From assembly GCA_023247825.1 (NCBI GenBank), contig JAHFFR010000001.1, forward strand, positions 23,009-87,008: a stretch of 64,000 nucleotides of DNA, read 5' to 3'. Source of the DNA: Candidatus Omnitrophota bacterium (GTDB lineage Bacteria; Omnitrophota; Gorgyraeia; Gygaellales; Profunditerraquicolaceae). The position numbers and the translations under genes were made by a program. A model generated the notes under the pieces. The model saw only the letters and a program-made list of their open reading frames with translations, was not told the DNA's origin and ran no database searches. Of the stretch, positions 3,100 to 29,624 are shown one piece after another (the stretch's first letter is position 1; each line of letters begins with the position of its first letter).

Positions 3100-3414
3100 T
3101 TAATACGCTTTAACCGTCTCTCTTATTCCTTCCTCCATGGTAAAAGGCGGTTTCCAGCCCAATAAATTGTGGATTTTACTGCTATCAACAAGCAGAGTCC
3201 CTGTTAATTTTTCCACCTCTTCGCCCTTGCCTGCAATCTTACACAGCACCTTTAGAATGCCAGGATGTAAAGAAAATAGAAACGCCTTCTTCTTCATTGC
3301 AGAAGCGATCATCCTTATCAAATCTGGAGTAGAAATATCCTGCCCATCACTTACTAAGAAAGTCTCCCCTGCCGCTTTTGGGTGCTGGACGCAAGTTATA
3401 ATAGCATCAACCAA
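3100..3414 (-). pseudogene. Duplicated 3' fragment of the NAD-dependent epimerase gene at 4800..5738 (orphan C-terminal 104 codons)
   Basis: The nucleotide sequence 3112..3414 is identical to 4812..5114. The translation VDAIITCVQHPKAAGETFLV... matches the C-terminus of the 312-aa epimerase except for the last three residues. Confidence 0.7.
3112..3414. repeat. Left copy of a 303-bp perfect direct repeat
   Basis: Identical to 4812..5114 by direct comparison. Identity breaks at 3111/4811 and at 3415/5115. Confidence 0.85.
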
Positions 3415-4723
3415 CTTCGGCCAAAAGCCATTTCCAGAGAGGCACTATTTTCACCGTATGACCGTTCAACTTTTCTTCGCCTTCCGTTGCGTCCGTGACG
3501 ATAGTCGCATCTGTAATGTTCAAATCTTTCATGCCTTTATGAAGGCTGCGCAACTCTCGATTCCTTGTCTTTTCATCCTGCATATTCCAGCAGACTTGAA
3601 TTAAGCTCGTTACTTTCAAGCCTTCCTTGATAACGAAATCAACCTCGCTGTGATGGATATCTTTCCAATAAAACAGCTCAATATTCGGATTTAAATTTTG
3701 TTTCCGTTTGAGCGCCACAAAAACAACATTCTCGGCGAGTCTCCCATAATTCTCCGAAAATCTAAAACCAACAGCATTGCATAAACCGGTATCAATCGCG
3801 TAAATTTTGCGCGGACTTTTTTCCTGTTCTTTAACCTTGAATGAAAATCGTTTTAATGAAAAAACTAGATACGCCTGCTCAAGATATCCGGTATAGCTCT
3901 TGACGCTGGTTATCGACATATCAAGTGAACGTTCTATTGATTTAAATGTAGAAGGCGCGGAGATATTAGAAAGGTAATACTTCACAATGGTTCTTAAGTC
4001 CTGAGCTTTCTTTATCTTGAATCTTCGTAAAAGATCTTTAGTTATTACATCCTCAAAATAGCTTAATAAAATCTCTTTTTTCTGCTCTGACAGAACGACT
4101 TCGGGGAATGAACCATATTCAATGTATTTTCGTAAAGCTCCTTTTATTTCCGATTCCCTTCCGATTAACCCCAGCTTGCCGGTCAACGAGATATTATTAA
4201 AAGAAAGAAATTCCCCGAACGATAACGGAAAGACCTCCATATCAAGATGCCTGCCGGTAAGCAATGTTCCAAGTTCCCGGCTTAAGAGGAGCGCGTTTGA
4301 ACCAGATATAATTATTTTTGCCTTTGAAAGCTCATGCATCATCCTAACCCATTTCTCGAAGCCTTCTATTTCCTGTATTTCATCAATGAATAAGATCGGA
4401 GTGTTTTGGGCAGATATGTATTCGCGGTAAGTCTCAAAAATCTTGCTTAAAAGCGAAACTCCCGACTCAGTAAACCGCGGATCCTCAAAATTGACATGCA
4501 TTATATCCTTTGAATTATACCCACTATTGATCAGCCTCTTTATCATTTGACGTATGATAAATGATTTGCCTGCGCGCCTCGGGCCCATTATAGTAATAAC
4601 TTGGTTAGACGAAAAAAGGGATTCAAGTTTCGAAATATAGATAGGCCTTGAAACGCCTATTTTCTGGTCTCGATTCCAAAAATTCCAATCATCAAGTATC
4701 TGAATTATCTCATTTTTTGTCAT
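3407..4723 (-). CDS. AAA+ ATPase of the AAA_14/DUF4143 (COG1373-like) family, the only gene between the two repeat copies
   Basis: Walker A (IMGPRRAGKSF) and Walker B (ILFIDEIQEI) motifs. The C-terminal region is typical of DUF4143. The last 8 bp including the stop codon lie inside the left repeat copy. Confidence 0.8.
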   Translation of the reverse strand: MTKNEIIQILDDWNFWNRDQKIGVSRPIYISKLESLFSSNQVITIMGPRRAGKSFIIRQMIKRLINSGYNSKDIMHVNFEDPRFTESGVSLLSKIFETYREYISAQNTPILFIDEIQEIEGFEKWVRMMHELSKAKIIISGSNALLLSRELGTLLTGRHLDMEVFPLSFGEFLSFNNISLTGKLGLIGRESEIKGALRKYIEYGSFPEVVLSEQKKEILLSYFEDVITKDLLRRFKIKKAQDLRTIVKYYLSNISAPSTFKSIERSLDMSITSVKSYTGYLEQAYLVFSLKRFSFKVKEQEKSPRKIYAIDTGLCNAVGFRFSENYGRLAENVVFVALKRKQNLNPNIELFYWKDIHHSEVDFVIKEGLKVTSLIQVCWNMQDEKTRNRELRSLHKGMKDLNITDATIVTDATEGEEKLNGHTVKIVPLWKWLLAEVG

Positions 4724-7048: not shown

Positions 7049-8419
7049 CTACCCTTTTAAATTACTGTGCCAGCTTATTCTGCAGTATTGCCAAGTTACA
7101 AATACCAGAGGAATTATTATAATGTTTACAATCAAATATCCCATGGCGACCCCGGCAGCTGAATAATATTTTCCCAGAATAATTGTTAACCCTCCGATAA
7201 GCGCTCCTGCCATAACCGATAAGAATACGAGTGGTTCTTTTTTATGCGCACGCAAATATCCTGACGCGGGAAGCGATACGCTTACAATAATCTGCGCCAA
7301 TAAAAAAATAGCTACCGTTAATGGTGGTAGAAACCTTACGGCAAATTTACTATGAAAATTATATAGCAAAAAAATACCAAACCAAATCGATAAACCTAAA
7401 ATTACAGAAACAATTAAAACAACCCTTGTCATCTTAAAGAATAGCTTATCCAGTGTTTCGTAATCTTTCTTAGCGATAAGCATTCCGAATCTAGGAATTT
7501 TTGGCGCAAGCCAGGCACTCGATATCCAAATAACAATCCCTACCAAATTCCATGTCATTCCCATTTGCCCTGCGACGACTGACCCGTGGAATTTGAATAA
7601 TACCGGCGTAAATAACGAAAAAACAAAATATCCACCAACCCAAGAGACAGCTATCCTCCATTGCATTGGGAAGATATCCTTATACCATTTAATCCGCGGC
7701 CCTTTCGCATTAAGAAAAAACAGGCTTCTGAAAAAATACCAATATTTGTATTTTATGAAGAATAGGCCGCACGCCAGAAACATTATACTTGAAACAGAAA
7801 GCGCAAAAAGCCCTGCCCCGGATAAGATTGCAATCCAAATAGATAAGTTTACCAGTAATCCTTGCCAAAACTTAAAAAAATATAATTCTGCAAGTTGATT
7901 GCACCCTTCCAGCAGCGACCATATCGGGGCCAGGCAAAGATTTATACCAGTTAAAAAACATAAGCTAAACCATGGAAATACCCAACTGATACCGGATTTT
8001 TGTGATTCTAAAAAGAATACATACCCGCCTATTCCTAAAAAAAGAATTAGGAAGGCCGCGCCGACTGCATACCATCTTAAAGACAACCGTGCTAAACTAC
8101 CCAGCCTTGACAGCGCTTCTTCACTGCCCGCTATAAAACCTTTTTCTGTAATACTAAGGCGCGACCATTCATGGCTTGCAAATTGAATGATTACAACTCC
8201 AAGGCCTAGCTCCACAAAAACCTGTAGCGCAAGAAGCGTGCTGAAGGTATAGTAATACCCCTGTAATTCAGGCGAAAATTTGATAATGATAAGTATAATC
8301 GTAATGGGGCCTGTGATGATCAACCATGCTTTCGATAAGATACTAAAAAATGCGGGCCGATCAACTTCAATCTTCCGCAAATTATTCTTAATAAAATTTC
8401 TCGCCTCGGATATTTTCAT
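7049..8419 (-). CDS. Polytopic membrane protein, Wzx-like (MOP/polysaccharide biosynthesis flippase family) candidate
   Basis: 456 aa with about 12 predicted TM helices and a Wzx-like N-terminal region (IIIKFSPELQGYYYTFSTLLALQVFVELGLG). Confidence 0.55.
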   Translation of the reverse strand: MKISEARNFIKNNLRKIEVDRPAFFSILSKAWLIITGPITIILIIIKFSPELQGYYYTFSTLLALQVFVELGLGVVIIQFASHEWSRLSITEKGFIAGSEEALSRLGSLARLSLRWYAVGAAFLILFLGIGGYVFFLESQKSGISWVFPWFSLCFLTGINLCLAPIWSLLEGCNQLAELYFFKFWQGLLVNLSIWIAILSGAGLFALSVSSIMFLACGLFFIKYKYWYFFRSLFFLNAKGPRIKWYKDIFPMQWRIAVSWVGGYFVFSLFTPVLFKFHGSVVAGQMGMTWNLVGIVIWISSAWLAPKIPRFGMLIAKKDYETLDKLFFKMTRVVLIVSVILGLSIWFGIFLLYNFHSKFAVRFLPPLTVAIFLLAQIIVSVSLPASGYLRAHKKEPLVFLSVMAGALIGGLTIILGKYYSAAGVAMGYLIVNIIIIPLVFVTWQYCRISWHSNLKG

Positions 8420-9477
8420 TTCTTAAACCTTTGACTTGGGCCCATATTTATTAATATGCGGCCCCCTGTTCCCTTCTTTAGCTTATTCAGCGCCTTATTG
8501 ATATTTGACAAACTACACATATCGCCGATAAGCTCGCCGATTTTTAATTTTCCGGATAAATATAAATCCGCATACATCGGTATATCAATATCGGGGTTTG
8601 TTCCGCCACCCCAAGCGCCTACGATCCCTTTACCTTTTATCAAATTAAAGGGGTCAATCGATATTTTATCTCCCTGCGGCAAATTACCCGTTATTATACA
8701 AAGCCCGCCTTTATCGCGGACTGACTGAAAAGCGGCTTCCATCATCGCCCTACTTCCCGAACATTCAACCGCATAATCAACGCCCTTACCTGCCGTAATT
8801 TCCATTATACAAGATAAAACGCCGCCTTTCTTAGCGTTTATTATATCTGTAGCACCAAGTTGCCGGGCCTTTTCAAGTTTATACTCAAACTTATCAACCC
8901 CGATAATACTGGGAACACCTATCATCCGCGCAGCCAATAAAGCGCTCAACCCAATACCACCCAATCCAAAAATAGCTATACTGTTGGCATATCCTTTTTT
9001 TATTGCTTTAATCACAATACCTGCGCCGGTTGGAATAGCGCATCCGAACAATGCGGCTTCCTTTAAAGGTATGCCGTCAGGAATTCTGACTACGCGATTT
9101 TCAGAAACTACCGCTTTCGTCAAAAATGTTGAGATAGCTCCTGAATTAACAATGCCACCATTGCCTTTTAAGTATTGGCAGGATGGGACATCTATTCCGG
9201 AGCCTTTTAACCATGTTAATACCACAAGATCGCCAACTTTAACTTTTTTTACACTTTCGCCAATCGCCGCTACTACACCCGACCCCTCATGCCCAAGAGT
9301 ATGCGGCAAAAACCTATCCTCCCCTTTCAATCCACCGATTTCATTCAACTGTGAATGACAAATGCCGCTATAAGCTATTTTTACCAATACCTGGCCATGT
9401 TTCAGCTCTGGAACTGTCAGCTCCTCGATGCGTAAAGGATTATTTATTTTCTCTAATACAGCCGCTAAAGTTTTCAT
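8416..9477 (-). CDS. Zinc-dependent medium-chain alcohol dehydrogenase/reductase
   Basis: GHEGSGVV zinc-ligand motif, a GLGGIGLSA Rossmann motif and a GICHSQ motif. 353 aa. Confidence 0.8.
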   Translation of the reverse strand: MKTLAAVLEKINNPLRIEELTVPELKHGQVLVKIAYSGICHSQLNEIGGLKGEDRFLPHTLGHEGSGVVAAIGESVKKVKVGDLVVLTWLKGSGIDVPSCQYLKGNGGIVNSGAISTFLTKAVVSENRVVRIPDGIPLKEAALFGCAIPTGAGIVIKAIKKGYANSIAIFGLGGIGLSALLAARMIGVPSIIGVDKFEYKLEKARQLGATDIINAKKGGVLSCIMEITAGKGVDYAVECSGSRAMMEAAFQSVRDKGGLCIITGNLPQGDKISIDPFNLIKGKGIVGAWGGGTNPDIDIPMYADLYLSGKLKIGELIGDMCSLSNINKALNKLKKGTGGRILINMGPSQRFKK

Positions 9478-9492: not shown

Positions 9493-10164
9493 CTAATCCG
9501 CGATAAACCACCAATAATCCCCGCTATAGCCGACTTCAGCGAACAGCTTCTTCCATTCGTCAACATGCATCATTGTTTCAGCAGTAAGTACCCACTTAAA
9601 GAGGTTAACGCGCTCCTGCTCGTTGCGCCAGGCGTCAATGGTAATATAGCTATTCCCGCGGCAGACACGCTGAATTTCCCGCAGGGATATTTTAAGACGC
9701 TCAAGAGAAAGATTGTGGATCGAATTAATAGAAATCACTAAATCAAAAGATTTATCGGGATAAGGCAATTTTTCAGCGCTGGCGATTTTCAGAAACGGTT
9801 TTACGGAAGCCATGGCGTTCTCGATCGCGTATTCACTGACGTCTATGCCGGCAACGGTTGCCTGCGGCATCAACTCCTTAAAATCATGAAGCATAAAACC
9901 TTTAGCGCAGCCGATATCAAGAATCGCGGCATTATCCGGCAGATGATAAAAATTCTTTATCAGCTTTACGACCGTCCTCCAGCGGCCATCATATTTATAA
10001 CCACCATAGCCACATCTCCTATCACCATCGAAGAAATCCCGACTGAATTGCTTGGCTAACTTAATAATTTCCTGTGTCTTTTCACGTGCACGCTTATCAT
10101 AATCACGCGCGGTTTTTGGATAGCTATCCAATAAATTTATTTCACTCATAATTTTAATTTTCAA
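9493..10164 (-). CDS. Class I SAM-dependent methyltransferase
   Basis: Motif I is ILDIGCAKGFML. 223 aa. Confidence 0.7.
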   Translation of the reverse strand: MKIKIMSEINLLDSYPKTARDYDKRAREKTQEIIKLAKQFSRDFFDGDRRCGYGGYKYDGRWRTVVKLIKNFYHLPDNAAILDIGCAKGFMLHDFKELMPQATVAGIDVSEYAIENAMASVKPFLKIASAEKLPYPDKSFDLVISINSIHNLSLERLKISLREIQRVCRGNSYITIDAWRNEQERVNLFKWVLTAETMMHVDEWKKLFAEVGYSGDYWWFIAD

Positions 10165-10172: not shown

Positions 10173-11093
10173 CTAAAATAATTCAGACTTTACCTTTTGT
10201 ACAATATTATCCACGGTAAACCCAAGAAGTTCACAAATATCTGCATAAGAGCCATAATCCCTGACAAAGATATCAGGTATAGCAATAAATGAATATTTTA
10301 TACCAGCCAGATCTTTAGTAATTCTGAGGACTTCATCGCCCATTCCTCCATACATACTATGCTCTTCTATAACAATAACTTTCTTGGTATTTTTAACACT
10401 TTCCAGTATCAATTTCTGATCAAAAGGTTTAATGGTGTGCATATAAATTATCTCTGCATCAAAACCAAACTTCTTCAATAACTCAGAGGCATCCAACGCA
10501 GTTTTTAACTGAGGGCCAGTGACTACAATAGTTAGATCGTTACCCTTCGTAACCTTTATCCCCTTTCCTGATATAAGCTGCTCTTTGCTAAAAATAAAAT
10601 CATGGGATAACCTAGGGATACGAAAATAGGATACCTTTCCATTGTTATACGTTTGTTTAAAAAGGGTAATAAGTTCTATTGGGGAAGCGGGAAAAAATAT
10701 CTGAGTATCGGGTAGCGGTTTTAACAAAGCGAAATCAACGTAACAATGATGAGTACATCCAAGAGTTGAATAATCAAAAGCGCTGCCGACAGTAATAATA
10801 TTAACTCCCAGCTCTTGATAACAAAAATCTAGCTTTATCTGCTCATACGACCTTTCTACAATAAACGGAGCGATGGTATGTACAACTGGATAAAAACCCA
10901 ACATCGATAAACCAGCTGCCATATTTACAATGGTTGGCTCGCAAATACCAATATTATAATATCTACCCTGGCATGCCTTAGCAAAATCCAGAAGCCTAAA
11001 ATGGCTTATGTCACCAACCATAACCACAAGGTTTTCATCCTTCTTACCTACCTCAAGGAGCGTATCAGCAAACTCCTCACGCATATCCTTCAT
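10173..11093 (-). CDS. Transketolase, C-terminal (pyrimidine-binding) subunit of a split transketolase
   Basis: Transketolase pyrimidine-binding/C-terminal domain pattern. Its start overlaps the stop of the N-terminal subunit gene by 4 bp. Confidence 0.85.
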   Translation of the reverse strand: MKDMREEFADTLLEVGKKDENLVVMVGDISHFRLLDFAKACQGRYYNIGICEPTIVNMAAGLSMLGFYPVVHTIAPFIVERSYEQIKLDFCYQELGVNIITVGSAFDYSTLGCTHHCYVDFALLKPLPDTQIFFPASPIELITLFKQTYNNGKVSYFRIPRLSHDFIFSKEQLISGKGIKVTKGNDLTIVVTGPQLKTALDASELLKKFGFDAEIIYMHTIKPFDQKLILESVKNTKKVIVIEEHSMYGGMGDEVLRITKDLAGIKYSFIAIPDIFVRDYGSYADICELLGFTVDNIVQKVKSELF

Positions 11094-11878
11094 AAGGCAA
11101 GCTCCTTATAGATTAATTCTAATTCTTCTTTATTGGGAACTTTATAATGCCACGGCCCATGCGTTTCCATAAACTTAACCCCTTTACCTTTTACAGTATC
11201 AGCGATTATAACTTTGGGCTTTGCATTAAAGTCAAACTTTGTTTCTTTGAATACTCTCTCAATCTCTTCCTCTTTATGACCATTAATTCTATGCACTTCC
11301 CAACCAAAAGAGCTCCATTTATCAGAAAGATTTGAAACAGGCAAGACCTGAGTCGTGGAACCATTGTTATCTATTATACAACAAAAGTTACCCAATTTTA
11401 AATTTGCTGCTACTAAAGCTGTTTCCCAGACGGTTCCTTCATTGCATTCTCCATCTCCAACAAGCGCTATGACTTTATTTCTTTTATTCCTTATCTTAAG
11501 ACCCAAAGCAATACCCATTGCTGTAACAATGCCATGCCCTAAGGAACCAGTACACGCCTCAACCCCCGGAACTTTTGTCCTATCAGGGTGCCCTCCCAAA
11601 ATTGCGCCTTTTTTGCTCTTATTATCTAAATCATCCTGAAGAATAAAGCCATGTTTTTCCAAAACTACATAAAGAGCTGCGCAACCGTGCCCTTTACTTA
11701 AAATGAAATAATCTCTCCCATCCCAAAGTGGATTTTTAGGGTTAAACTTAATGACCTTATCATATAAGTATGCGATTATATCAATTATTGAGAAAGCGCT
11801 TGGAATATGCCCCTCTCCAGCCTTATAAACCATATCTACTATCTTTTTGCGCAATTCTTTATTCATCATGTTATTCAT
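11090..11878 (-). CDS. Transketolase, N-terminal (ThDP-binding) subunit
   Basis: GHPDRTKVPGVEACTGSLGHG and GDGECNEG ThDP-binding motifs. Confidence 0.85.
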   Translation of the reverse strand: MNNMMNKELRKKIVDMVYKAGEGHIPSAFSIIDIIAYLYDKVIKFNPKNPLWDGRDYFILSKGHGCAALYVVLEKHGFILQDDLDNKSKKGAILGGHPDRTKVPGVEACTGSLGHGIVTAMGIALGLKIRNKRNKVIALVGDGECNEGTVWETALVAANLKLGNFCCIIDNNGSTTQVLPVSNLSDKWSSFGWEVHRINGHKEEEIERVFKETKFDFNAKPKVIIADTVKGKGVKFMETHGPWHYKVPNKEELELIYKELAL

Positions 11879-11901: not shown

Positions 11902-12678
11902 CTACTGTCCAAAATATCCTCTTCCTTGCCCGCCATCAACAGGAATAATACTTCCAGTATTAAAAGAAGCTAATTCTGAACAAAGAAAAACCACAAAATT
12001 ACCAATTTCCTCTGGGCTTCCGAAACGGCCTATTCTTTGCCTCTCAGCTAAAAATCTCTTTACGTGTTTGGGATTACTTTTAGAAACTTGATCCCAATAG
12101 CCACCTTTTGTAAAAACAGCTCCCGGTAAAACAGCAGAAACAACTACACCATCAGGAGCAACTACTCCCCCAAAGCTCCTAGTATAAGCGGTCAAAGCGG
12201 CTTTCATGGCGCAATAAGTTACCGGGCCATGATTTTCCATAGCTGAGATAGAAGAGATATGAATTACCCTACCCCATTTATTTTTCTGAAGATAAGGAAC
12301 AATTAGGCTATTAATCTCAACTGCTACTTCAAAATTAAAACGATATACTCTTCTCCATTGCTGTATAGAACAAAACGGATCTTTAATGTCAAGGGTTCCT
12401 CCTAAATTATGCACAATGATCTCAGGAATCCCAAAACTTTTTCTTAATTTATTAAAAAGCAACCGCGGGGATTTTTCTTTCTCAAGATCAAGAACTACAG
12501 CAATATGGTTCTTGCTCCCGCCAGGCATTTTAGCGATTAAACTATTGAGATCGGCCTTAGACCTGGAAACAACAGCAATACGCGCGCCTTCATTTGCTAA
12601 ACCAAGCGCAATAACGTTTCCAATCCCCCTACCACTACCTGTTACTAAAGCTAACTTGCCCTTAATTCCAAGCTCCAT
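11902..12678 (-). CDS. Classical short-chain dehydrogenase/reductase (SDR)
   Basis: TGSGRGIGNVIA glycine-rich motif. 258 aa. Confidence 0.8.
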   Translation of the reverse strand: MELGIKGKLALVTGSGRGIGNVIALGLANEGARIAVVSRSKADLNSLIAKMPGGSKNHIAVVLDLEKEKSPRLLFNKLRKSFGIPEIIVHNLGGTLDIKDPFCSIQQWRRVYRFNFEVAVEINSLIVPYLQKNKWGRVIHISSISAMENHGPVTYCAMKAALTAYTRSFGGVVAPDGVVVSAVLPGAVFTKGGYWDQVSKSNPKHVKRFLAERQRIGRFGSPEEIGNFVVFLCSELASFNTGSIIPVDGGQGRGYFGQ

Positions 12679-12694: not shown

Positions 12695-13897
12695 TTAAAT
12701 GTTGTGAAAAGGATAGATAATATTCTTCGGCCTAATAGATAAAAGTTTAGTCATAATTGGTTTCACATTGTCCACTGCAGTTATAAAAACATTTGAATTA
12801 CTTAGCACATCATTTTTGATTTTACCGGAATAACAAATTTGCACGGGCAAATTAACGTAATACTTTCCGTCTTTTTTTACATCATCATCCAATAGCGCTT
12901 TTAAAAAAGTAAAATCTGTTCCCAAATGGTAACCTAAAATCGGCAGCATCATTGCCGCCCCATATCCGTAAATGCCAGAATTGGATAGTTTCTTTAATAA
13001 CTGCATTACATTGTCCATCTGTTTATGAAAAATAGATACTCGTTCTCTAATTTCATTTTTCTGGTAATTAAATTTAAATATTCTTTTTTTGGACCTGCTC
13101 TTTTTAAAAGCCACTACCATCGCCCCCCAGTTATGATAATTTTTAGTCCAGGAAATTATTTCTGCTCCACTCATACTCAAAATACACTCAAAAGAAGCAA
13201 GACTAAAATACTGCAGATGCTCATGAAAAACCTGATCAAAACGATATCTTTCAATTAAAGTTTCAAAACAAGGTGTTTCAAAAATAAAAATGGTGTCCTC
13301 ATCTGCAAACTCCATTAATTTTCTAATAACAATTTCTGGTTCAAAGATGTGTTCGATTGCATGCCTGCAGAATACAATATCCGGCTTAGAAATTATATCT
13401 TTCTCAAATTCGACATCTTCAATCGTCTTACCTAAAACCCTTGTTCCATCAGATAAATTACCGGTGTTTTTTTGATTCCAGATAGGATCTATGCCTAAAC
13501 GCTTTCTTATAAAAGACGCTGCCTCATTCAACAAATACAGATCATTACATCCAACATCGATGCCATAATTCAAAATCTTTTTACCAATTAATGATTTTAA
13601 AAAATTCAATAAGAAGTTTGTTCCTTCTTTTGCGCTAGCACTTGCCGAGGTCCTAAAAGTATATTTATCAGAATCATACAATATAACCGGATTAACCTGA
13701 TGCAATAACTGGCCCTGTCCGCATTTCGGACACCATAATAATTTCTGATTAACCCCTTGAACAGGCAAACTTTGTTTTTTATTTGAAAAAAAACCTGTTA
13801 AAGGCAGATTTGGTAAATCTAAGATACTAACAAGATTACCATAACCGCAAATACTACAACCTTCCCTTGTTTTAACTATAATATTATTAAATTTCAT
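12695..13897 (-). CDS. C-methyltransferase-family protein (Zn-ribbon plus class I MTase plus C-MTase C-terminal domain), a TylC3-like NDP-sugar C-methyltransferase candidate
   Basis: N-terminal CxxC...CxxC motif (CSICGYGN...CPKCGQG) and motif I (IDVGCNDLYLL). A paralogue of 27383..28633. Confidence 0.6.
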   Translation of the reverse strand: MKFNNIIVKTREGCSICGYGNLVSILDLPNLPLTGFFSNKKQSLPVQGVNQKLLWCPKCGQGQLLHQVNPVILYDSDKYTFRTSASASAKEGTNFLLNFLKSLIGKKILNYGIDVGCNDLYLLNEAASFIRKRLGIDPIWNQKNTGNLSDGTRVLGKTIEDVEFEKDIISKPDIVFCRHAIEHIFEPEIVIRKLMEFADEDTIFIFETPCFETLIERYRFDQVFHEHLQYFSLASFECILSMSGAEIISWTKNYHNWGAMVVAFKKSRSKKRIFKFNYQKNEIRERVSIFHKQMDNVMQLLKKLSNSGIYGYGAAMMLPILGYHLGTDFTFLKALLDDDVKKDGKYYVNLPVQICYSGKIKNDVLSNSNVFITAVDNVKPIMTKLLSIRPKNIIYPFHNI

Positions 13898-13928: not shown

Positions 13929-14126
13929 TTAAAATGGCCCCTTAAACCAGCCTCCCGGCACATCACTACCGTTACTAGAATCAGTGACGGCTTCCACGGG
14001 GACCCGAAACATAGCCGCGGCTATCCGAGTGATATCCACGGCTCGGGGATAATAGTGTTTCGCCAGCTCCCAGCTTGCTGGCGTCGGTAGATCCGGAAAC
14101 GCGACTCGTCGTGGAGCGCATTTCAA
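13929..14126 (-). pseudogene. Remnant encoding only the C-terminal ~65 aa of an E1-beta (ThDP enzyme) subunit
   Basis: VAFPDLPTPASWELAKHYYPRAVDI aligns with the C-terminus of the intact E1-beta at 15724..16779 (ITFPDVPTPTSPALAKYYYPRAVDI). The fragment is visibly more GC-rich than its surroundings. Confidence 0.6.
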
Positions 14127-14233
14127 GCTGTCGAGGCATTTTTCCGCTGCCAGCGCTTTCCTATATCGCTACCTATACCAAGAATACCAAGAATAAAAAC
14201 ATTTTTTGTGACTGTCTTCTTTCCGACCATATT

Positions 14234-15724
14234 CTATTTTCCTGAAGAAGGCATAATATTTTTGACCATGCTGTTTACGCCCAGATTTCGCCTGGTGTTC
14301 ATTCGCCAATCTTCTAATTCTGCCATCGTGATGCCGTTTATTCTAGCAACAGCCTTTTTTCTTTCTGGAGAAGAAAAATTTATCCTATCCCATTCGAACG
14401 AACGCAAAACCTCAAGCTCAAACGTTGTAAATTCTTTTGTTGATATAAGCCCTTTTCCATAACCTGAATATCTTGACATATTCTTAATGTAATCTTTTGG
14501 CAATAGGCCTTTGCGCACACATATATCCATCAACTCTGTTTTAGGCAACGGTGTCGCTATGTGAAAATTTACTATGTCTACGTCCAATTTTTCAGCAAAG
14601 GCAAATGTTTCGCGAATCTCATGCCAGGTTTCACCTGGAAAGCCTACGACGAAATTAGCAAGTATATTGAAACCCATGGACTTGGCAAGCTTAAGCGTCG
14701 AGGGGACGCTTTCCAGCTTTATAGGTTTTTTTATAATATTTTTAAGAACACGCTGATTGCCTGATTCTATTGAGACGGTTATAAAATTACATCCACTTTT
14801 ATACATAAGCTTCAGAATCTCTTCGTCAAGCATCCAGACGGTAACATTAACGCATTTCCAGGTCAGATCCTTATGGTTTCCCAAGATGCCTTTCATTATT
14901 TTTATAGCCCGGTCCCTGTCCACCAGGAAATGGTCATCCAAGAAAACCACCTCTCTGATACCCTGTTTATAGAGGCTATCGATTTCATTAAGTACGTTCT
15001 CCGCGCTCCTGAATCGCATTTTCTCGCCGCTCACCGTCTTACCGGCACAGAATATGCATCTGTAGGGGCAGCCCCTGGAAGTAATGGTAACAGCCGATGG
15101 ATAATTTCGCGCCAGTAGCCCCGGGGCATACTTGAATTTAATATTGCCGTAATCGCGCAGGGCGGTCTCGATAATAGACGAATAATCCGGAAATGGGACC
15201 TCGTCGAGATCGCTTACAAATTCCATTTTGTTTATAACCGGCTCAGCGCCCTGCCAATAAGCCAAGCCGCTGATATCGAAAGAATCTTTTGAGCCTCTGC
15301 GCAATTTTTCTATAAGAAGCGGGAAAGAACGTTCCCCTTCGCCCATGATCCAGTAGTCAACAGACTTATCCTTCATGGCCTCTTCTATCATTACCGTAGG
15401 GATCACGCCGCCAAAAACAATCACCGTTTTCGGAAGGTATTTCCGGATAAGCGCTATCATATGCCGGGTAACGCTAAAATATTCCGTGGAAACAGAGCTA
15501 ACCCCGACTAAATCGGGGTTGATCTTCTTTAGAAACTTTGCGGTCTCTCCCTCGGACAAGTTCTTAAAATTCGGGTCAAGCACTATAACTTCCTCCGCAA
15601 GGTCTTTAATTACGGCTTTTAACAAACATAGAGTATAGGGCGGAAATAGCCACGTCCTTTTGGAAAGCCATGCGTAATTAGGTTGCGTTAAAAGTATTTT
15701 TTCGATTTTTCTTCGTCGTATCAT
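14234..15724 (-). CDS. Cobalamin-binding radical SAM enzyme (class B)
   Basis: An N-terminal B12-binding-like domain followed by CPYRCIFCAG (CxxxCxxC). 496 aa. Confidence 0.85.
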   Translation of the reverse strand: MIRRRKIEKILLTQPNYAWLSKRTWLFPPYTLCLLKAVIKDLAEEVIVLDPNFKNLSEGETAKFLKKINPDLVGVSSVSTEYFSVTRHMIALIRKYLPKTVIVFGGVIPTVMIEEAMKDKSVDYWIMGEGERSFPLLIEKLRRGSKDSFDISGLAYWQGAEPVINKMEFVSDLDEVPFPDYSSIIETALRDYGNIKFKYAPGLLARNYPSAVTITSRGCPYRCIFCAGKTVSGEKMRFRSAENVLNEIDSLYKQGIREVVFLDDHFLVDRDRAIKIMKGILGNHKDLTWKCVNVTVWMLDEEILKLMYKSGCNFITVSIESGNQRVLKNIIKKPIKLESVPSTLKLAKSMGFNILANFVVGFPGETWHEIRETFAFAEKLDVDIVNFHIATPLPKTELMDICVRKGLLPKDYIKNMSRYSGYGKGLISTKEFTTFELEVLRSFEWDRINFSSPERKKAVARINGITMAELEDWRMNTRRNLGVNSMVKNIMPSSGK

Positions 15725-16779
15725 TAAAAAGGACCTGTGAATGTTTTATCAGGTATATCCAGCGGAACATTAGTAGTCATTTCTCCTTCTTCCTCTAATT
15801 TTCTAAAGAGATTAAACATAGGTCTTATGCTATTAACAATATCTACTGCTCTAGGATAATAATATTTTGCCAAAGCCGGGCTTGTAGGTGTCGGTACATC
15901 GGGAAATGTAATACGTTGAGGTTTAGCCTTAAATATCCCATGTCCTTTTTCTGCCACCAAAGCGATAACCTCTGCGGCAATGCTACAACTACGCCAAACC
16001 CCATCCACTACAACCAAGCGACCAGTTTTTGTTACTGATTTTACTATGGATTCCTCATCTAAAGGCCTGATTGTGCGCAGGTCTATAACTTCTGCATCTA
16101 TATCGTCTTCCCTTAGCATCTCTGATGCGCGCATTGCCTCCAAAACCATGTATGACGAAGAAATAATAGTAATATCCTTGCCTTCCCTGGTTATTTTGGC
16201 TTTATGCAAAGGCTCTCTATACATCTTTTCAGGAACATAGTCTGATATGCCATAAAGCCAACGATGTTCGATGAAAATCACAGGATTATCATCTTCAACC
16301 GCCGAAATCAATAGTCCTTTAGCATCATAAGCGGTAACAGGCATAACCACCTTAAGGCCGGGAATATGAGCGAATAATGACTGCAGGCTTTGTGAATGCT
16401 GAGGCCCCTGTCCCCATCCACGTCCGATAAGCATACGGATTACCAACGGAACTTTCATTTTTCCACCGAACATATAATGCCATTTAGCGGCATTATTGAT
16501 GATTTGATCTAAAGACAAGATCATAAAATCAACACGCTGATGCGTTAAGATCGGACGCATTCCCATTAAGCAGGAGCCTATTGCTACTCCGGTCATAGCA
16601 TTTTCAGCAACAGGCATATCCATAAGTCTATTGCCATATTTTTTTTCAAGCCCAAGAGTAGTCCCGAATACTCCTTTCGGGTCGGTTACGCCTAATCCCA
16701 TGATATAAACCGACTTGTCCTTAGCCAAACATTGATCGGTTGCTTCTAAAATAGCCTGTGCGTAAGTGAGTTTTCTCAT
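15724..16779 (-). CDS. ThDP-dependent dehydrogenase E1 component, beta subunit-like
   Basis: Transketolase-like pyrimidine-binding and C-terminal domains. 351 aa. Forms a pair with the alpha subunit upstream. Confidence 0.85.
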   Translation of the reverse strand: MRKLTYAQAILEATDQCLAKDKSVYIMGLGVTDPKGVFGTTLGLEKKYGNRLMDMPVAENAMTGVAIGSCLMGMRPILTHQRVDFMILSLDQIINNAAKWHYMFGGKMKVPLVIRMLIGRGWGQGPQHSQSLQSLFAHIPGLKVVMPVTAYDAKGLLISAVEDDNPVIFIEHRWLYGISDYVPEKMYREPLHKAKITREGKDITIISSSYMVLEAMRASEMLREDDIDAEVIDLRTIRPLDEESIVKSVTKTGRLVVVDGVWRSCSIAAEVIALVAEKGHGIFKAKPQRITFPDVPTPTSPALAKYYYPRAVDIVNSIRPMFNLFRKLEEEGEMTTNVPLDIPDKTFTGPF

Positions 16780-16790
16780 TTTATCGGTTA

Positions 16791-17762
16791 TTAAGCGTAA
16801 AGGTCAGAAAAAATCTCTTTCCTCGCGGGAAAGGGAGAATCTTTCGCAAAATTTACTGCTTCATTTATTTCCTTCTCGATTGTTTTCTTAATACACTCGG
16901 TCTGCTCCGTATTAAGTATTTTCTGCCGGAACAACTTTTTCTCAAAATTATCCAACGGGCACCTCTTATACCAATGTCTGAATTCATTTTCGCTTCTATA
17001 GCCAAGATCATTGTCGAAATTATGCCCGCAGTGTTCACGGTATCTGTAGGTATCGAACTGTAAAAATGAAGGCCCTTGGCCTTGCCTTGCGAGTTTGATT
17101 GCCCTTTCTGCTTTCTGGTAAACAGCGGCTACGTTATTGCCGTCGCACTTTTCAGCACGCATTCCGTAGCCATTGGCAATTTTCAAATTATCTCTTTTTT
17201 TCGGCTGACGCACTAATAACGGTGAATATACCGAATACAGGTTATTTTCGCATACAAAAACTACCGGCAATTTTTTTAATGAAGCGAAGTTTAAACTTTC
17301 AGAGAATACGCCTTCTTCAGTAGCGGCATCCCCGAAAAAAGCAGCAGTTACTTTTTTCTCTTTCTTCATAGCCGCTCCAAACGCAACACCTACGGCTACC
17401 GGAATCACTCCAGCTACTATGGGCGTAGAACCAAGAAAATTAACGCTTAAATCCACTAAATGCATAGAACCGCCCTTACCCTTTGAGCACCCCGAAGCCT
17501 TACCATAGATTTCAGCCATCATTGCCTTTAAATCTCCACCCTTGGCTAAAAAATGCCCATGGCTTCTATGATTACTTAATACATAGTCATCCTTCTTCAG
17601 GTTCGCGCATACCCCTGCAGCTACCCCCTCCTGCCCTATGCAAATGTGCACCGGACAGCGCATCTCCTGTTCAGGATATAATTCACAAATTTTTTCCTCT
17701 ACCATACGAATCCGCAACATTTGATAATATAATGAAAGGTATACTTTTTTATTTATTTTCAT
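16791..17762 (-). CDS. ThDP-dependent dehydrogenase E1 component, alpha subunit-like
   Basis: GKGGSMHL motif and the E1-alpha ThDP-binding fold. 323 aa. Confidence 0.85.
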   Translation of the reverse strand: MKINKKVYLSLYYQMLRIRMVEEKICELYPEQEMRCPVHICIGQEGVAAGVCANLKKDDYVLSNHRSHGHFLAKGGDLKAMMAEIYGKASGCSKGKGGSMHLVDLSVNFLGSTPIVAGVIPVAVGVAFGAAMKKEKKVTAAFFGDAATEEGVFSESLNFASLKKLPVVFVCENNLYSVYSPLLVRQPKKRDNLKIANGYGMRAEKCDGNNVAAVYQKAERAIKLARQGQGPSFLQFDTYRYREHCGHNFDNDLGYRSENEFRHWYKRCPLDNFEKKLFRQKILNTEQTECIKKTIEKEINEAVNFAKDSPFPARKEIFSDLYA

Positions 17763-17767: not shown

Positions 17768-18706
17768 TTAAAGCTTAAGCGTCTTCATTGTTTTTATATT
17801 ATACCATCGGTCTTCATCCTTTAGATGGCCTGCTTGGAATTCATTAACAAGTTCTTTTATCGCATCGTCAACGCTGTACTTCTGCCTAAACCCCGCGGCA
17901 CGCAACTTATCTGAACAAAGCCTGTAAGAACGAGGGTCATTTGATTCGCTAATAATAATTTCTGCCGGCACTTGAGTAACGATCTTCTTTGCTATATCTA
18001 AGATAGATATATTCTCAAAACCAGCGTTATAGATACCTTCTATTTTATCTCCCATTTTGAGAAGATATGAATATACCGCAACCATATCTTTAATATGTAT
18101 ATTTGGACGTACCTGGCTCCCTCCTAAAACCGTAATTTTACGGTTAGCTAAAGCCTGAACGGTCAGCATATTTACCGAGAGGTCAAGCCTCATCCTTGGA
18201 GAATAACCACAAACCGTGGCCGGCCTGACACATTGAATTAAAATTTTATCCCGGTAGCTTATAAGCACTCTTTCGCTTATCATTTTAGTTTTGTTATAGT
18301 CGGAAATCGGAACCAGAGAAAGTTCTTCCGTCACATCCGATTCTTCTTTGACCCCATATACACTTCCTGAGCTTGCATATATAAACTGCTTCACCTTGTT
18401 ACTGATAGCGCGCTCAACCAAGCGCATAGTTGCTAAAACATTAACATCCCAGCTAAGTTGAGAATCCAATTCACTACAAGGATCGTTAGCCACGTTGGCC
18501 AAATGTATAACGACGTCTATCGCCTGCATGGGTATTTTTTCAACATTACGCACATCTTCCCGGATAACTCTCAGGTTCTTGTGTTCCTTGAGAAAATTAC
18601 CAAACCACATTATATCGACTACGGTAACATGATGCCCATCACCCAGAAGAGTCTCAGTAAGAATAGTCCCGATATAACCACAGCCGCCCAGCACAAGTAT
18701 CTTCAT
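17768..18706 (-). CDS. NAD-dependent epimerase/dehydratase (extended SDR)
   Basis: MKILVLGGCGYIG and YNKTK (YxxxK) motifs. Confidence 0.8.
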   Translation of the reverse strand: MKILVLGGCGYIGTILTETLLGDGHHVTVVDIMWFGNFLKEHKNLRVIREDVRNVEKIPMQAIDVVIHLANVANDPCSELDSQLSWDVNVLATMRLVERAISNKVKQFIYASSGSVYGVKEESDVTEELSLVPISDYNKTKMISERVLISYRDKILIQCVRPATVCGYSPRMRLDLSVNMLTVQALANRKITVLGGSQVRPNIHIKDMVAVYSYLLKMGDKIEGIYNAGFENISILDIAKKIVTQVPAEIIISESNDPRSYRLCSDKLRAAGFRQKYSVDDAIKELVNEFQAGHLKDEDRWYNIKTMKTLKL

Positions 18707-18723: not shown

Positions 18724-20265
18724 TTAGAAACTAAGCAGAGCCATCCCGCCTTTTAATAACTTATTCTTTTTAATGGAATCGGCATTGCCGATAATGCGAA
18801 CTGCTTGTGCCCCTGCCAATTGCCCCATAAAAGTAACCAGGTCTATCGGCAGGCCTTTTGCAGCCGCCAAAGAAGTCACAGAGCAAAAGGCGTCCCCTGC
18901 ACCCACGGTATCAACTACAGATTGCTCAAAAGGCATACACTCACATTCAGGTTCGCCGGATTTTACGCCGATTGTATCCGTGGCGCCGCGAGTTAGCCAG
19001 CCATAACGTGCGAACAACTTGTGTTGTAACTTTTTTAATTCTTCGGAAAAATTTATATTTCGTCTGCCGCAAGCCAAAGTTAGCTCTGTTTCATCTAAAG
19101 AAAATGAATCCGCGCGATGATATTTTTTATCGATTATATTAAAACCATAGTTATAACTGTTGGTCTGGCAATTAAGAGCTAGAAACGGCGACTTTTTCTG
19201 GACAAGTTCGCGAACTTTCTCCTGCATAAGGCCATGGCCAAAATCCATCACCATAACCAAATCATAATCTTTTATGCAACTATTTATAACACCGCAAAGC
19301 GAGGTTTGAATCTTTTCGTCTAAATACTGCTCTTTTATTATGTTAATAGCGAATAGCTTGGATAATTCTTTCCCTTCAGAAGGCGGCTCAACAAAACGCT
19401 GTTTGATAATAGTAGTAAAATCAGGGCTGCGGATTATTCCATCTTCATTAGGGCTTACATATTTAGCTAAAGCCGGACCTACCCATTCCTCCGTACCTAC
19501 CAAACTAACAAGTTTAACATTAGAGGTGAACTGTTTTACGTGGCGAAAAACCGCCAAGGCGCCGCCTGCCTGCGTTTCTTCGGCCAAAAATCTTGTGGAA
19601 ATAATGCGGTTTTTAGACGTAAGACCCTGCACTTTAACCGAAGAATATCGATCAAAAATGACATCCCCAATAATTAAAACTTTTAAATTCCTAAAACTAT
19701 CCACTATCTCCCTGAATTGGTTCGGCGTGTATTTTGCCGCCAGTTTCTTACAGAATTCTTTCATTGGTTTAGGGTGAACTTCAAAATGATTATTAAGTAG
19801 CTTTGTTGAACTAAAAACAACTGAACCTACATAATGCACCCGGCCGCCTAAGCGCTCCACAGCTTGAATATCATCGTGAATATTACCGGTTACGTCAACC
19901 TGAGGGTCTTCATACTCTTTTCCTTTACAATATATATGCGGACGGATACACTCTATCGCTTCGCGGGCGGCAGGGAAAGGTACTACTACCACATAATCGA
20001 CATATTCTAAAGATGACAGATATTTAACTCTGATCTCATCATTAAAATACGGCCGGCCCGGGCCTTTATTCACATATTCCTCTGCGGTAATAGTTACTAC
20101 TAAGATATCGCCCATAGCCTTAGCTTCTTCAAAATGAACAATGTGGCCGGGGTGAAGAAGATCAAATGTTCCGTGGCATTGAACGATTTTTTTGCCCTCG
20201 TTTTTAAGTTTAGCGAAAACACGCGGAGCATCCTGAAAAGAAAGGCCCTTCTTAGAACTAAGCAT
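18724..20265 (-). CDS. Bifunctional sugar-1-phosphate nucleotidyltransferase (cytidylyltransferase-like, N-terminal) / PfkB-family sugar kinase (C-terminal); HldE/RfaE-like but with inverted domain order
   Basis: N-terminal CHGTFDLLHPGHIVHF (HxGH motif). C-terminal DTVGAGDAFCS (ribokinase/PfkB GAGD motif). 513 aa. Confidence 0.75.
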   Translation of the reverse strand: MLSSKKGLSFQDAPRVFAKLKNEGKKIVQCHGTFDLLHPGHIVHFEEAKAMGDILVVTITAEEYVNKGPGRPYFNDEIRVKYLSSLEYVDYVVVVPFPAAREAIECIRPHIYCKGKEYEDPQVDVTGNIHDDIQAVERLGGRVHYVGSVVFSSTKLLNNHFEVHPKPMKEFCKKLAAKYTPNQFREIVDSFRNLKVLIIGDVIFDRYSSVKVQGLTSKNRIISTRFLAEETQAGGALAVFRHVKQFTSNVKLVSLVGTEEWVGPALAKYVSPNEDGIIRSPDFTTIIKQRFVEPPSEGKELSKLFAINIIKEQYLDEKIQTSLCGVINSCIKDYDLVMVMDFGHGLMQEKVRELVQKKSPFLALNCQTNSYNYGFNIIDKKYHRADSFSLDETELTLACGRRNINFSEELKKLQHKLFARYGWLTRGATDTIGVKSGEPECECMPFEQSVVDTVGAGDAFCSVTSLAAAKGLPIDLVTFMGQLAGAQAVRIIGNADSIKKNKLLKGGMALLSF

Positions 20266-20277: not shown

Positions 20278-21288
20278 CTATTCTTTATGAACATATTCAA
20301 ACGGCTGCTTTTTTAACTCTTTGAGATTATCATCTACCCAATTTATTGTTTCCCGTATGCCATCTTCCAGCTTGATACGATCTGTCCAACCTAATTCATC
20401 GCGCAACTTACTGCTATCCAATAAATATGCCGCATCCTTACCCGGATTCTCACCCACTATTTCAACAAGTTTTGTAAAATTTGCTTGCATCATTTTGCAA
20501 ATCGATTCTACTAAGACCTTTATAGAGATATATGAATCTGTAGATATATGATATATTTCCCCCACAGTCCCTTTTTGCGCGATTTTTAGAGTAGCTGCCG
20601 CCATATCCCGAATATGAATAAAAGAACGCACTGAATGCCCCCCGCCACGTAATTGCAGTTTCTTGCCAAGTTTTATATAAAGAATAGTTCGAGGTATTAC
20701 CCTATAGAGTTGTTGTCCTGGGCCATAGACATTGGCTGCGCGCGTAAAAACTACTGGAAATTTATAACGATTAAAGAATGTCTTCAGGTGCAGATCACAA
20801 GCTGCTCTTGAAGCAGCATAAGGAGTGCTGGGATTAAATAACATTGACTCGGTTACTTTCCCGGCACAATTACCATATACCTCCGGAGTTGACACATGGA
20901 CATATTTTTTCAGAAAATTGAACTTTCTTATTTTATCATGAAGCTTTACGTTACCGACGACATTAGTCTGATACCAATGTTCCGGATGCTCCCAGCTTTG
21001 AGCTACCATAGCCTGCGCGGCAAAATTTACAATGTAATCCGGGCAGAACTTCTTAATGCTACCGGCTATCCTATCTGTATCACAATTTATATCAAGCTTT
21101 TCAAACCTGAATGAGCCTGATTTATTTATATCATTCCACTTATACGGCAAAAACATGGCAGGCGACTCATGAGAACGACTTATACCTAATATTTCCATTC
21201 CTAAAGCAAGGCAATGTGCCGCAAAACTTGCCCCGGAAAAAGAATTGCTTCCTATTACAGCTATCTTCTCGCGCAGCTTAATCATCAA
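20278..21288 (-). CDS. NDP-sugar 4,6-dehydratase/epimerase-family extended SDR
   Basis: 336 aa. The usual YxxxK motif reads PYAASRAACD, with Arg at the Lys position. Confidence 0.65.
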   Translation of the reverse strand: MMIKLREKIAVIGSNSFSGASFAAHCLALGMEILGISRSHESPAMFLPYKWNDINKSGSFRFEKLDINCDTDRIAGSIKKFCPDYIVNFAAQAMVAQSWEHPEHWYQTNVVGNVKLHDKIRKFNFLKKYVHVSTPEVYGNCAGKVTESMLFNPSTPYAASRAACDLHLKTFFNRYKFPVVFTRAANVYGPGQQLYRVIPRTILYIKLGKKLQLRGGGHSVRSFIHIRDMAAATLKIAQKGTVGEIYHISTDSYISIKVLVESICKMMQANFTKLVEIVGENPGKDAAYLLDSSKLRDELGWTDRIKLEDGIRETINWVDDNLKELKKQPFEYVHKE

Positions 21289-21847
21289 GCATTCCTTTCT
21301 TAAGCCACTGCACCAACATATGCCCGACTATAAGCTGCAGATCCTCCGCTATTTGCATATCATTAACAGAAAAATGTATAGGGATATCCACCAAGCTTAA
21401 ACATTTACCTCCGTCAAATCCTAGGATCGCGCAAGTTAAAATACCATTATTTTTGGCACTATCTATTGCCTTCAAAATATTTGGAGAATTACCGCTTCCG
21501 GAAAGAACAATAAGAAGATCGCCTTTCCTCCCCAATCGTTCCAATTGGAATGAAAAAATATTCTCATATCCGGCATCATTAGATAAGCAGGTCAAAACAG
21601 CCTGATTGGCCGGCAATGCTGTAACTTTTATCCCATTGCCTTTCCATTTTAACTGAAGACACAGTAGGTCATTAGCTATATGCATCGCATTGGTAGCACT
21701 CCCACCGTTACCGCACAAAAATACATGCCGATCTTCTTTCTGAAAAGACAGGATCTTTTGGGCAAGCTGCGCTACCGGCGACCAGTCAAAAGATTGCATA
21801 CAATTAATTAGACGGTCCTGGTAATTTTTAATGGTTTCTTTTGGCAT
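21278..21847 (-). CDS. gmhA: Sedoheptulose-7-phosphate isomerase (SIS domain)
   Basis: SIS motif FLCGNGGSATNAMHIANDL. 189 aa. Confidence 0.8.
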   Translation of the reverse strand: MPKETIKNYQDRLINCMQSFDWSPVAQLAQKILSFQKEDRHVFLCGNGGSATNAMHIANDLLCLQLKWKGNGIKVTALPANQAVLTCLSNDAGYENIFSFQLERLGRKGDLLIVLSGSGNSPNILKAIDSAKNNGILTCAILGFDGGKCLSLVDIPIHFSVNDMQIAEDLQLIVGHMLVQWLKKGMLDD

Positions 21848-29589: not shown

Positions 29590-29624
29590 CGGTTATCAGC
29601 CCTCCGGCATAAGTTTATCTTTCA

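Follow-up and report, generated by a model that had tools for sequence, protein, structure and literature searches.

Two orphan E1-type enzyme pairs, putative sugar-branching carboligases, in a surface-glycan locus of an Omnitrophota bacterium

Described branching enzymes and the E1 pairs of the locus

Two-subunit E1α/E1β enzymes of the alphaKADH2 kind, which depend on thiamine diphosphate (ThDP), are known from the pathways of the actinomycete metabolites avilamycin, paulomycin, aldgamycin, kosinostatin and kibdelomycin (PMC12247030, PMC4753412, PMC4802897), and KbDH is the only one of them to have been assayed in vitro (PMC12247030). The paulomycin pair Plm8/Plm9 (=Pau11/Pau12) has been credited with the C2 side chain of paulomycose, which derives from pyruvate, an assignment based on homology and on the products of engineered strains, not on a knockout of the pair (PMC4802897, PMC4753412). 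Single-chain ThDP enzymes of the YerE type act in the formation of branched sugars of lipopolysaccharide (LPS) (PMC9306805), and Gram-negative O-antigen pathways are described as recruiting the single flavoprotein YerE, unlike the Gram-positive producers (PMC4753412). Overviews thus place E1-type and split-transketolase branching in actinomycete antibiotic clusters and attribute LPS branched sugars to YerE-type enzymes (PMC4753412, PMC12247030). Here we describe two E1α/E1β pairs that lie, without E2 or E3 partners, in a 64-kb stretch of DNA from Candidatus Omnitrophota bacterium (contig JAHFFR010000001.1; hereafter the window), which is a surface-glycan locus of the ATP-binding cassette (ABC)-transporter polysaccharide type. 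Both pairs are probably E2-independent E1-type ThDP carboligases of the AviB1/B2–Pau11/Pau12 kind, a reading drawn from sequence, context and phylogeny.

The window holds 63 open reading frames (ORFs) of at least 90 aa, every one on the minus strand, and each was scanned against Pfam. Pair 1 consists of the ThDP-binding subunit E1α1 (16791-17762, 323 aa; Pfam E1_dh, E=2e-66) and of E1β1 (15724-16779, 351 aa; Transket_pyr 6e-32 and Transketolase_C 1e-34), while pair 2 consists of E1α2 (44612-45571, 319 aa; E1_dh, E=2e-55) and E1β2 (43575-44615, 346 aa; Transket_pyr 2e-30 and Transketolase_C 9e-37), whose ORFs overlap by 4 nt (start/stop). In the public gene call E1α1 begins 19 codons downstream of the start of the 323-aa ORF. 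The limits given for the pairs in the initial annotation (15724-17762 and 43575-45571) coincide exactly with those of intact ORFs, and both the canonical E1α motif and the transketolase-like E1β fold that it had recognised are borne out, the former by alignment (KGKGGSMH in both α subunits) and the latter by Pfam (Transket_pyr and Transketolase_C in both β subunits). The alignment also displays a ThDP motif of the GDx(26)NN type in both α subunits; in β, the cofactor-activating Glu59 and His128 are invariant, and the catalytic His residues are kept in both subunits. Judged from identities of 42% (α) and 49% (β), the two pairs are paralogues with no recent duplication between them.

Like Pau11/Pau12, the window pairs are two-subunit E1α/E1β enzymes without E2/E3; they fall with them into a common supergroup in both subunit trees, share substitutions in the active-site region of α and an F-x-G-P-F/Y tail on β, and lie among nucleoside diphosphate (NDP)-sugar tailoring genes with a reductase nearby. 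The settings differ, Pau11/Pau12 belonging to an actinomycete antibiotic cluster with genes for deoxythymidine diphosphate (dTDP)-deoxyhexoses, whereas the window pairs occupy an ABC-transporter surface-polysaccharide locus with heptose-type genes (GmhA-like, HldE-like and GHMP kinase). Unlike Pau11/Pau12, the window pairs co-occur with split transketolases and B12-binding radical S-adenosylmethionine (SAM) enzymes. YerE, ErwE and MygE (for yersiniose, erwiniose and caryophyllose) are proposed to perform the same acyl-anion addition to an NDP-keto sugar followed by ketoreduction (PMC9306805), and YerE-like enzymes share with the window pairs the cell-surface glycan setting; they are, however, single-chain proteins of the decarboxylase superfamily (TPP_enzyme_N/M/C), whereas the window pairs are two-subunit E1 enzymes, and Pfam scans found no single-chain YerE-like ORF in the window. 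The kind of enzyme is already known. New are its two deep non-actinomycete clades, its setting among surface-polysaccharide and heptose-type genes, its company of split transketolases and the signature in the tail. We searched the literature for O-antigen clusters with E1 pairs or transketolases and found nothing relevant. Krug et al. 2024 (Angew. Chem.) reportedly surveyed about 120 alphaKADH2 clusters and might already list such loci.

Kinship with Pau11/Pau12 and distance from dehydrogenase-complex E1

With Pau11/Pau12 standing in for the AviB proteins to which the initial annotation had likened the pairs, both pairs group with Pau11/Pau12 and away from E2-linked E1, pyruvate dehydrogenase (PDH) and AcoA. 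A search of plasmids for AviB-like genes yielded no protein named AviB but led to a Streptomyces griseofuscus pair. Pau12 of Streptomyces paulus (UniRef A0A075EYF4) was reached with the β subunit of that pair as query; both its UniRef name and its place in the paulomycin cluster confirm what it is, its neighbours being Pau11, an aldo-keto reductase, an EryCIII-like glycosyltransferase and a hexose 2,3-dehydratase. In the α tree (neighbour-joining, Kimura distances, 84 sequences), 296/300 bootstraps split the clades a1 and a2, Pau11 and a few others from all E2-linked α subunits, Thermus thermophilus AcoA and human PDHA1; the same split had been obtained in 195/200 before Pau11 was included. 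E1α2 belongs to clade a2 (200/200 and 300/300 bootstraps), and E1α1 falls in clade a1. The β tree (neighbour-joining bootstraps, 68 sequences, tail columns removed) likewise separates the orphan group from the rest (299/300) and recovers the Pau12 clade (300/300), clade b1 with E1β1 and clade b2 with E1β2 (299/300 each), b1 and b2 being sisters in 251/300. On this sequence evidence b1 and b2 are two new, deep non-actinomycete clades, distinct from the actinomycete one. Pairwise identities are less informative than the trees; E1α1 shares 48% with Pau11 and no more than 42% with E2-linked α subunits.

The initial annotation had stated that no lipoyl-E2 or E3 is encoded in the 64-kb window, and two kinds of search agree with it. 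None of the Pfam domains Biotin_lipoyl, E3_binding, 2-oxoacid_dh and Pyr_redox was matched in the 63 ORFs; neither did phmmer searches with Pfam-verified E2/E3 seeds, taken from distant related loci and run against six-frame stop-to-stop fragments, find any E2 or E3, either in the window or across 39 related loci (L001-L039, all members of the a1 and a2 clades fetched up to that search). As a positive control, the same phmmer test picked up E2 in 12 of 49 more distant E1 loci.

These data bear directly on the alternative that the pairs act as conventional E1 subunits of a dehydrogenase complex for pyruvate, acetoin or branched-chain 2-oxoacids, with E2 and E3 encoded elsewhere in the genome. 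The window proteins do share fold, ThDP motifs and catalytic His and Glu residues with such enzymes, the His being kept in α and β alike, and are 30-38% identical to human PDH E1; their best Pfam and NCBIfam matches are PDH E1 models, and E1β2 (328.8 bits) even lies just over the NCBIfam PDH E1β subfamily cut-off of 321, with E1β1 (318.9) just below it. In addition, gene content is known for the 64-kb window only, which leaves room for distant partners. Both α subunits, however, score well under the cut-off of the PDH E1α equivalog model PDH_E1_alph_y (323.3 bits for E1α1 and 265.6 for E1α2, against 393.85); neither the curated cut-offs, which E1β2 alone passes, nor the gene neighbourhood, which lacks E2 and E3, places the window pairs among the E1 components of PDH or acetoin complexes. 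The pairs further stand apart in forming a clade distinct from all E2-linked E1 enzymes (296-299/300 bootstraps), in a 25-30 aa extension of the β C-terminus, the end that contacts E2 in G. stearothermophilus E1, in the want of E2/E3 in the window and the 39 related loci despite controls positive for E2, and in a strict synteny with sugar-nucleotide genes across phyla. Firm clustering with housekeeping PDH or acetoin dehydrogenase E1, which the initial annotation had named as part of the outcome that would undo its proposal, was not seen, the bootstraps being 296/300 (α) and 299/300 (β) against it. We consider a role in a dehydrogenase complex very improbable and come close to regarding it as refuted.

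One signature of the putative branching enzymes is the β extension. A C-terminal extension of 25-30 residues ending in F-x-G-P-F is present in 31/31 complete E1β proteins of both cassette clades, including E1β1 (15724-15810; 28 aa, ending ...IPDKTFTGPF) and E1β2 (43575-43650; ending ...SHEKKFKGPF), and tail-bearing β subunits were found in the window and in loci L001-L035, L090, L093 and L095. Pau12 ends in ...GFQGPF, and 120/120 of its actinomycete relatives end in GP(Y/F), whereas the F-x-G-P-F/Y tail occurs in 0 of about 45 E2-linked or other distant β subunits checked. Among the best 150 representatives (50% clustering), 67 carry the tail, α-β fusions included; this tail criterion was derived in the present analysis and is not a published one. 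All solved E1β structures stop at about residue 323 of the query, and in an AlphaFold2 monomer of E1β1 (predicted local distance difference test, pLDDT, 93 overall) the tail is coil with a pLDDT of about 58-76, a model that carries no information on tail docking within α2β2. In the G. stearothermophilus complex the C-terminus of E1β contacts the peripheral subunit-binding domain of E2, and an extension at this very end would fit a loss of E2 docking. Six natural α-β fusions of 659-708 aa (P0247, P0250, P0255, P0260, P0262 and P0295) keep the F-x-G-P-F end.

Three substitutions mark the α subunits of a1, a2 and Pau11 relative to E2-linked and human E1, namely (C/T)-P-x-H instead of G-F-x-H, GDxAx(E/D)EG instead of GDGAxNQG, and E-H instead of G-H ahead of the conserved histidine. 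Current annotation labels both types of E1 'pyruvate/acetoin dehydrogenase E1', and the β tail together with the three α motifs provides simple markers by which branching E1 enzymes could be told from those of dehydrogenase complexes. A further group of E1 loci (L046-L088) belongs to Actinomycetota, from metagenome-assembled genomes of Thermoleophilia, Solirubrobacterales and Gaiellales, and often contains tandem E1α/β pairs about 2 kb apart, whose β subunits are without the GPF tail; the downstream genes sampled there encode GMC oxidoreductases, AMP-binding enzymes or periplasmic binding proteins, not E2, which looks like another E2-independent use of E1.

Two sugar-nucleotide cassettes

Each pair lies in a cassette of its own. 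The window genes listed below lie on the minus strand. Upstream of pair 1, cassette 1 (21847-8416) encodes a SIS-domain GmhA-like protein (21278-21847), a short-chain dehydrogenase/reductase (SDR) of the 4,6-dehydratase type (20278-21288), a 513-aa cytidylyltransferase-PfkB protein that we call HldE-like (18724-20265) and a further SDR (17768-18706), all recognised with Pfam and NCBIfam. Downstream, Pfam identified a B12-binding radical SAM enzyme (14234-15724), an NDP-sugar C-methyltransferase-like protein (12695-13897), an adh_short reductase (11902-12678), a methyltransferase (9493-10164) and a zinc-dependent alcohol dehydrogenase (8416-9477), between which lies the first of two split transketolases. 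The HldE-like protein has its cytidylyltransferase domain N-terminal and PfkB C-terminal, the reverse of the domain order of HldE, and scores far under the NCBIfam HldE cut-off (126 against 521 bits); in relatives it is about 510 aa long. Since GmhA-like and HldE-like genes are present, the starting sugar of cassette 1 is probably a heptose.

Relatives of E1α1 with 49-79% identity are very abundant in metagenomes, and on their long contigs the gene order matches that of the window from 21847 to 8416: SIS, dehydratase-like SDR, HldE-like, SDR, E1α and E1β, followed by a B12-radical SAM enzyme or an epimerase, C-methyltransferase, adh_short, split transketolase, methyltransferase and zinc-dependent alcohol dehydrogenase. 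This order was found in Schekmanbacteria, Nitrospirae, Lentisphaerae and others. In some relatives (L004, L006) a YerE/acetolactate synthase (ALS)-like enzyme of 570-600 aa replaces the split transketolase and so accompanies the E1 pair. Across 25 a1-clade loci spanning 11 kb or more, the HldE-like gene is the commonest partner of the E1 pair (16 loci), ahead of homologues of the 312-aa SDR (SDR312; 14) and of the 336-aa SDR (SDR336; 13), SIS (12), DegT (11) and a second ThDP enzyme (10). The a1 clade also extends to cultured bacteria, namely Nisaea denitrificans DSM 18348, N. nitritireducens DSM 19540, Ferrovibrio xuzhouensis KCTC 42182, Azospirillum sp. TSO35-2 and A. oleiclasticum, and a plasmid of A. 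oryzae KACC 14407 (NZ_CP054615) carries an E1 pair (HUE56_RS00825/00820) followed by two DegT, a radical SAM, a NUDIX and three glycosyltransferase genes. Overall, E1 sugar-nucleotide cassettes span more than 10 phyla, with synteny kept in Schekmanbacteria, Nitrospirae, Omnitrophota, Lentisphaerae, Thermodesulfobacteriota, Rhodospirillales and others. In nearly all of them E1α has directly before it an SDR of the type that forms keto sugars, and in many a short-chain reductase follows; for pair 1, the candidate keto-sugar-forming SDRs are those at 17768-18706 and 20278-21288.

The initial annotation had listed the two E1 pairs correctly as ThDP enzymes of the locus and had overlooked two split transketolases, which bring the two-subunit ThDP enzymes to four. 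Split transketolase 1, within cassette 1 (N-terminal subunit 11090-11878, C-terminal subunit 10173-11093), and split transketolase 2 (53599-54360 and 52715-53596) were recognised with Pfam and NCBIfam; in both, one gene encodes Transketolase_N and another Transket_pyr plus Transketolase_C, and the two enzymes are 50% and 40% identical by subunit. They may perform further C2 transfers, for example of hydroxyacetyl units. Split transketolases have been put forward as the enzymes that add hydroxyacetyl branches in miharamycin and amipurimycin, none having been shown to do so in vitro, and the candidates published are said to stem without exception from Streptomycetes (PMC12247030). Those of the window resemble the miharamycin and amipurimycin candidates in lying within sugar cassettes, and differ from these Streptomycetes enzymes in belonging to surface-glycan loci of other phyla.

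Cassette 2 (about 46168-37401) continues downstream of pair 2 with genes that Pfam assigns to a methyltransferase-like protein (42617-43603), an adh_short reductase (41835-42635), an SDR (40848-41831), an RmlC-like 3,5-epimerase (40315-40830), a xylose-isomerase-like TIM barrel (39434-40300), another SDR (38396-39394) and a GHMP kinase (37401-38399). Relatives of E1α2, with 58-76% identity, come from Omnitrophota and Elusimicrobiota, and their cassettes consist of a dehydratase-like SDR, E1α, E1β, methyltransferase-like, adh_short, SDR, RmlC-like, SDR and GHMP kinase genes; from 45571 to 37401 the window is collinear with three of them (L006, L007 and L008). The set SDR, RmlC-like, SDR and GHMP kinase resembles those that tailor GDP-heptose and 6-deoxyheptose. 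Cassettes 1 and 2 occur separately in other genomes, which supports two different branched sugars instead of one redundant step, and the suggestion of the initial annotation that two pairs mean two branching events or two branched sugars is, by this comparison of conserved cassettes, the favoured one.

An SDR gene directly precedes E1α in all a2-clade loci, and tblastn with the SDRs of L006, L007 and L008 shows its counterpart in the window to be a pseudogene of a 4,6-dehydratase-like SDR (45582-46168). Only residues of about 135-330 are kept, in two frames with a break near 46000-46013, and the N-terminal Rossmann part is gone; in agreement with this, the GDP_Man_Dehyd match of a 141-aa ORF at 45579-46004 is confined to the C-terminal part of the Pfam profile. 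Pair 2 must then draw on another SDR or may be idle, and other SDRs do follow it in the cassette. Might pair 2 be a decaying remnant, unused since cassette 2 lost its keto-sugar-forming SDR, with its ORFs still open? The truncated and frameshifted SDR upstream of E1α2 is what such decay would look like, and the locus holds other debris (an E1β relic, an SDR fragment at 3100-3414 and an AbiEii fragment); yet E1α2, E1β2 and eight downstream genes of the cassette are full length and collinear with those of relatives, the start/stop overlap of E1α2 and E1β2 is retained, and the locus has at least 8 further SDR genes from which the keto sugar could come. We therefore regard decay of pair 2 as distinctly unlikely, and a pair 2 that still serves a cassette of its own as the better reading.

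The degraded E1β remnant that the initial annotation had placed at 13929-14126 is indeed a relic, which blastx extends to 13929-14162 (last 78 codons) and which represents the 3' end of a third tail-bearing E1β gene. It covers β residues 273-351, is 44% identical to E1β1 and 48% identical to the β subunit of L004, and its translation ends in ...DVPGGWFKGPF followed by a stop. The relic sits between the B12-radical SAM and C-methyltransferase genes, and a third E1β within cassette 1 points to recombination among cassettes.

The putative reaction and the surrounding locus

We propose that each pair serves its own cassette, and that cassette 1 would start from a sugar activated by the GmhA-like isomerase and the HldE-like kinase/nucleotidyltransferase. 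An α2β2 enzyme would decarboxylate a 2-oxo acid, with pyruvate as the likeliest substrate, and form a hydroxyethylidene carbanion bound to ThDP. This carbanion would bypass the lipoyl arm and attack the carbonyl group of a keto sugar activated by a nucleotide, yielding a C-acetyl branch on a tertiary alcohol. The acceptor would be an NDP-keto sugar delivered by the adjacent SDR. The branch could be reduced by the neighbouring adh_short enzyme and then methylated, aminated or extended, its candidate modifiers being the adh_short reductases, methyltransferases, B12-radical SAM enzymes and aminotransferases, and the products would enter a polysaccharide exported by the Wzm/Wzt ABC transporter. 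The data show the gene content, the lack of E2/E3 in the window, the kinship with Pau11/Pau12 and the conserved synteny, whereas donor, acceptor, branching position, activity and any continued use of pair 2 are what we infer; likewise, the C2 transfer that the initial annotation had taken over from AviB1/AviB2 agrees with sequence, context and phylogeny and is here a predicted reaction.

An E2-independent E1 might equally act as a carboligase or lyase that does not branch a sugar ketone, for instance by extending a sugar aldehyde end-on into a sugar with more carbons, by using a donor other than pyruvate, or by making or cleaving a small acyloin destined to decorate the glycan as a non-carbohydrate group. 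A variety of carboligations is known for free E1 enzymes (PMC7696235), and acetoin:dichlorophenolindophenol (DCPIP) oxidoreductase, of the same superfamily, cleaves acyloins (PMC12247030); one member of the Pau12 clade occurs in a setting that resembles polyketide synthase/nonribosomal peptide synthetase clusters, and the roles could also be divided differently among the E1 pairs, the split transketolases and the YerE/ALS-like enzymes of relatives' cassettes. On the other side, the closest relatives with an assigned function are placed at pyruvate-dependent ketone branching of NDP-sugars, and the layout with an SDR before and a reductase after the pair mirrors the logic of YerE/YerF and of Pau11-12/Pau7. 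A use of the pairs other than ketone branching thus seems unlikely to us, and branching of a keto sugar remains the reading we prefer. The C12 branched sugar caryophyllose was considered as a parallel and dropped; it is ascribed to YerE-like enzymes using long 2-oxo acids (PMC9306805).

Several observations weigh against a branching role, or temper it. The comparisons used Pau11/Pau12 as a proxy for AviB1/AviB2, AlmDI/DII and KbDH-α/β, and both trees are neighbour-joining, not maximum-likelihood, trees. All tail-bearing β subunits form one clade in only 129-143/300 neighbour-joining bootstraps (43-48%). E1α2 is 33% identical to Pau11 and up to 33% identical to E2-linked α subunits, and the identity of the window β subunits to Pau12 (44-47%) is hardly higher than that to E2-linked β subunits (38-47%). 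The search for E2 and E3 covers the 64-kb window, so that distant genes for them elsewhere in the genome are possible, and the SDR expected to feed pair 2 its keto sugar is a pseudogene. Moreover, an E1 pair on the S. griseofuscus plasmid pSGRIFU1 (locus L089; NZ_CP051007 137096-139142), with a β subunit 73% identical to Pau12, adjoins genes for a condensation-domain protein, an acyl carrier protein (ACP), a phosphopantetheinyl transferase, a thioesterase and a ketosynthase, with zero annotated sugar genes within 14 kb; given this position among condensation, ACP and ketosynthase genes, the Pau12 clade may reach beyond sugar acceptors. Finally, the function suggested for members of the b1 and b2 clades, the window pairs included, is a predicted one.

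In a bolder and more tentative form, which we put forward as possible but would not call probable, the locus would make surface sugars more complex than any described so far, heptose-derived units bearing an E1-installed acetyl or hydroxyethyl branch, a transketolase-derived hydroxyacetyl group and C-methyl groups added by the two C-methyltransferases and the two B12-radical SAM enzymes; cassettes marked by F-x-G-P-F would represent a widespread, unrecognised route to C-branched envelope sugars in many phyla, and the tail would replace E2 docking, acting for instance as a lid or acceptor-binding arm. The distribution of the cassettes suggests that surface-glycan loci, too, commonly use E1-type branching, in groups ranging from Omnitrophota to Rhodospirillales, and the branching idea is open to test in the culturable relatives from Azospirillum, Nisaea and Ferrovibrio. 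ThDP carboligases that form tertiary alcohols are also sought as biocatalysts.

The remaining genes agree with such a setting. The presence of a Wzm/Wzt ABC-2 exporter (Wzm-like permease, 55660-56499, Pfam ABC2_membrane; Wzt-like ATPase, 54375-55682, Pfam ABC_tran) marks the locus as a surface-glycan one, and Pfam further identifies an initiating sugar transferase (909-1472, Bac_transf), GT2, GT4 and Wzy_C-like genes, GMD (32261-33349), nucleotidyltransferases, a DegT aminotransferase, several methyltransferases and about a dozen SDR epimerase/dehydratase genes. Besides those of cassette 1, a second B12-binding radical SAM gene (34249-35616) and a second NDP-sugar C-methyltransferase-like gene (27383-28705) are present, and these two proteins of each kind suggest several C-methylations in addition to the ThDP-dependent C-C bonds.

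In the middle of the locus, 919 nt (28706-29624) are free of ORFs of at least 90 aa, with a local GC of up to 0.48. The region 58264-59890 comprises an AbiEii toxin fragment (158 aa; profile positions 96-229 only), an ORF6N-domain ORF and a 719-nt ORF-less gap, and is mobile-element or defence debris that breaks up the sugar genes. Within 3100-4723, an AAA_14/DUF4143 ATPase gene adjoins a 104-aa ORF (3100-3414) whose match to GDP_Man_Dehyd (E=3e-4) is limited to the C-terminal end and which may be another SDR gene broken by insertion.

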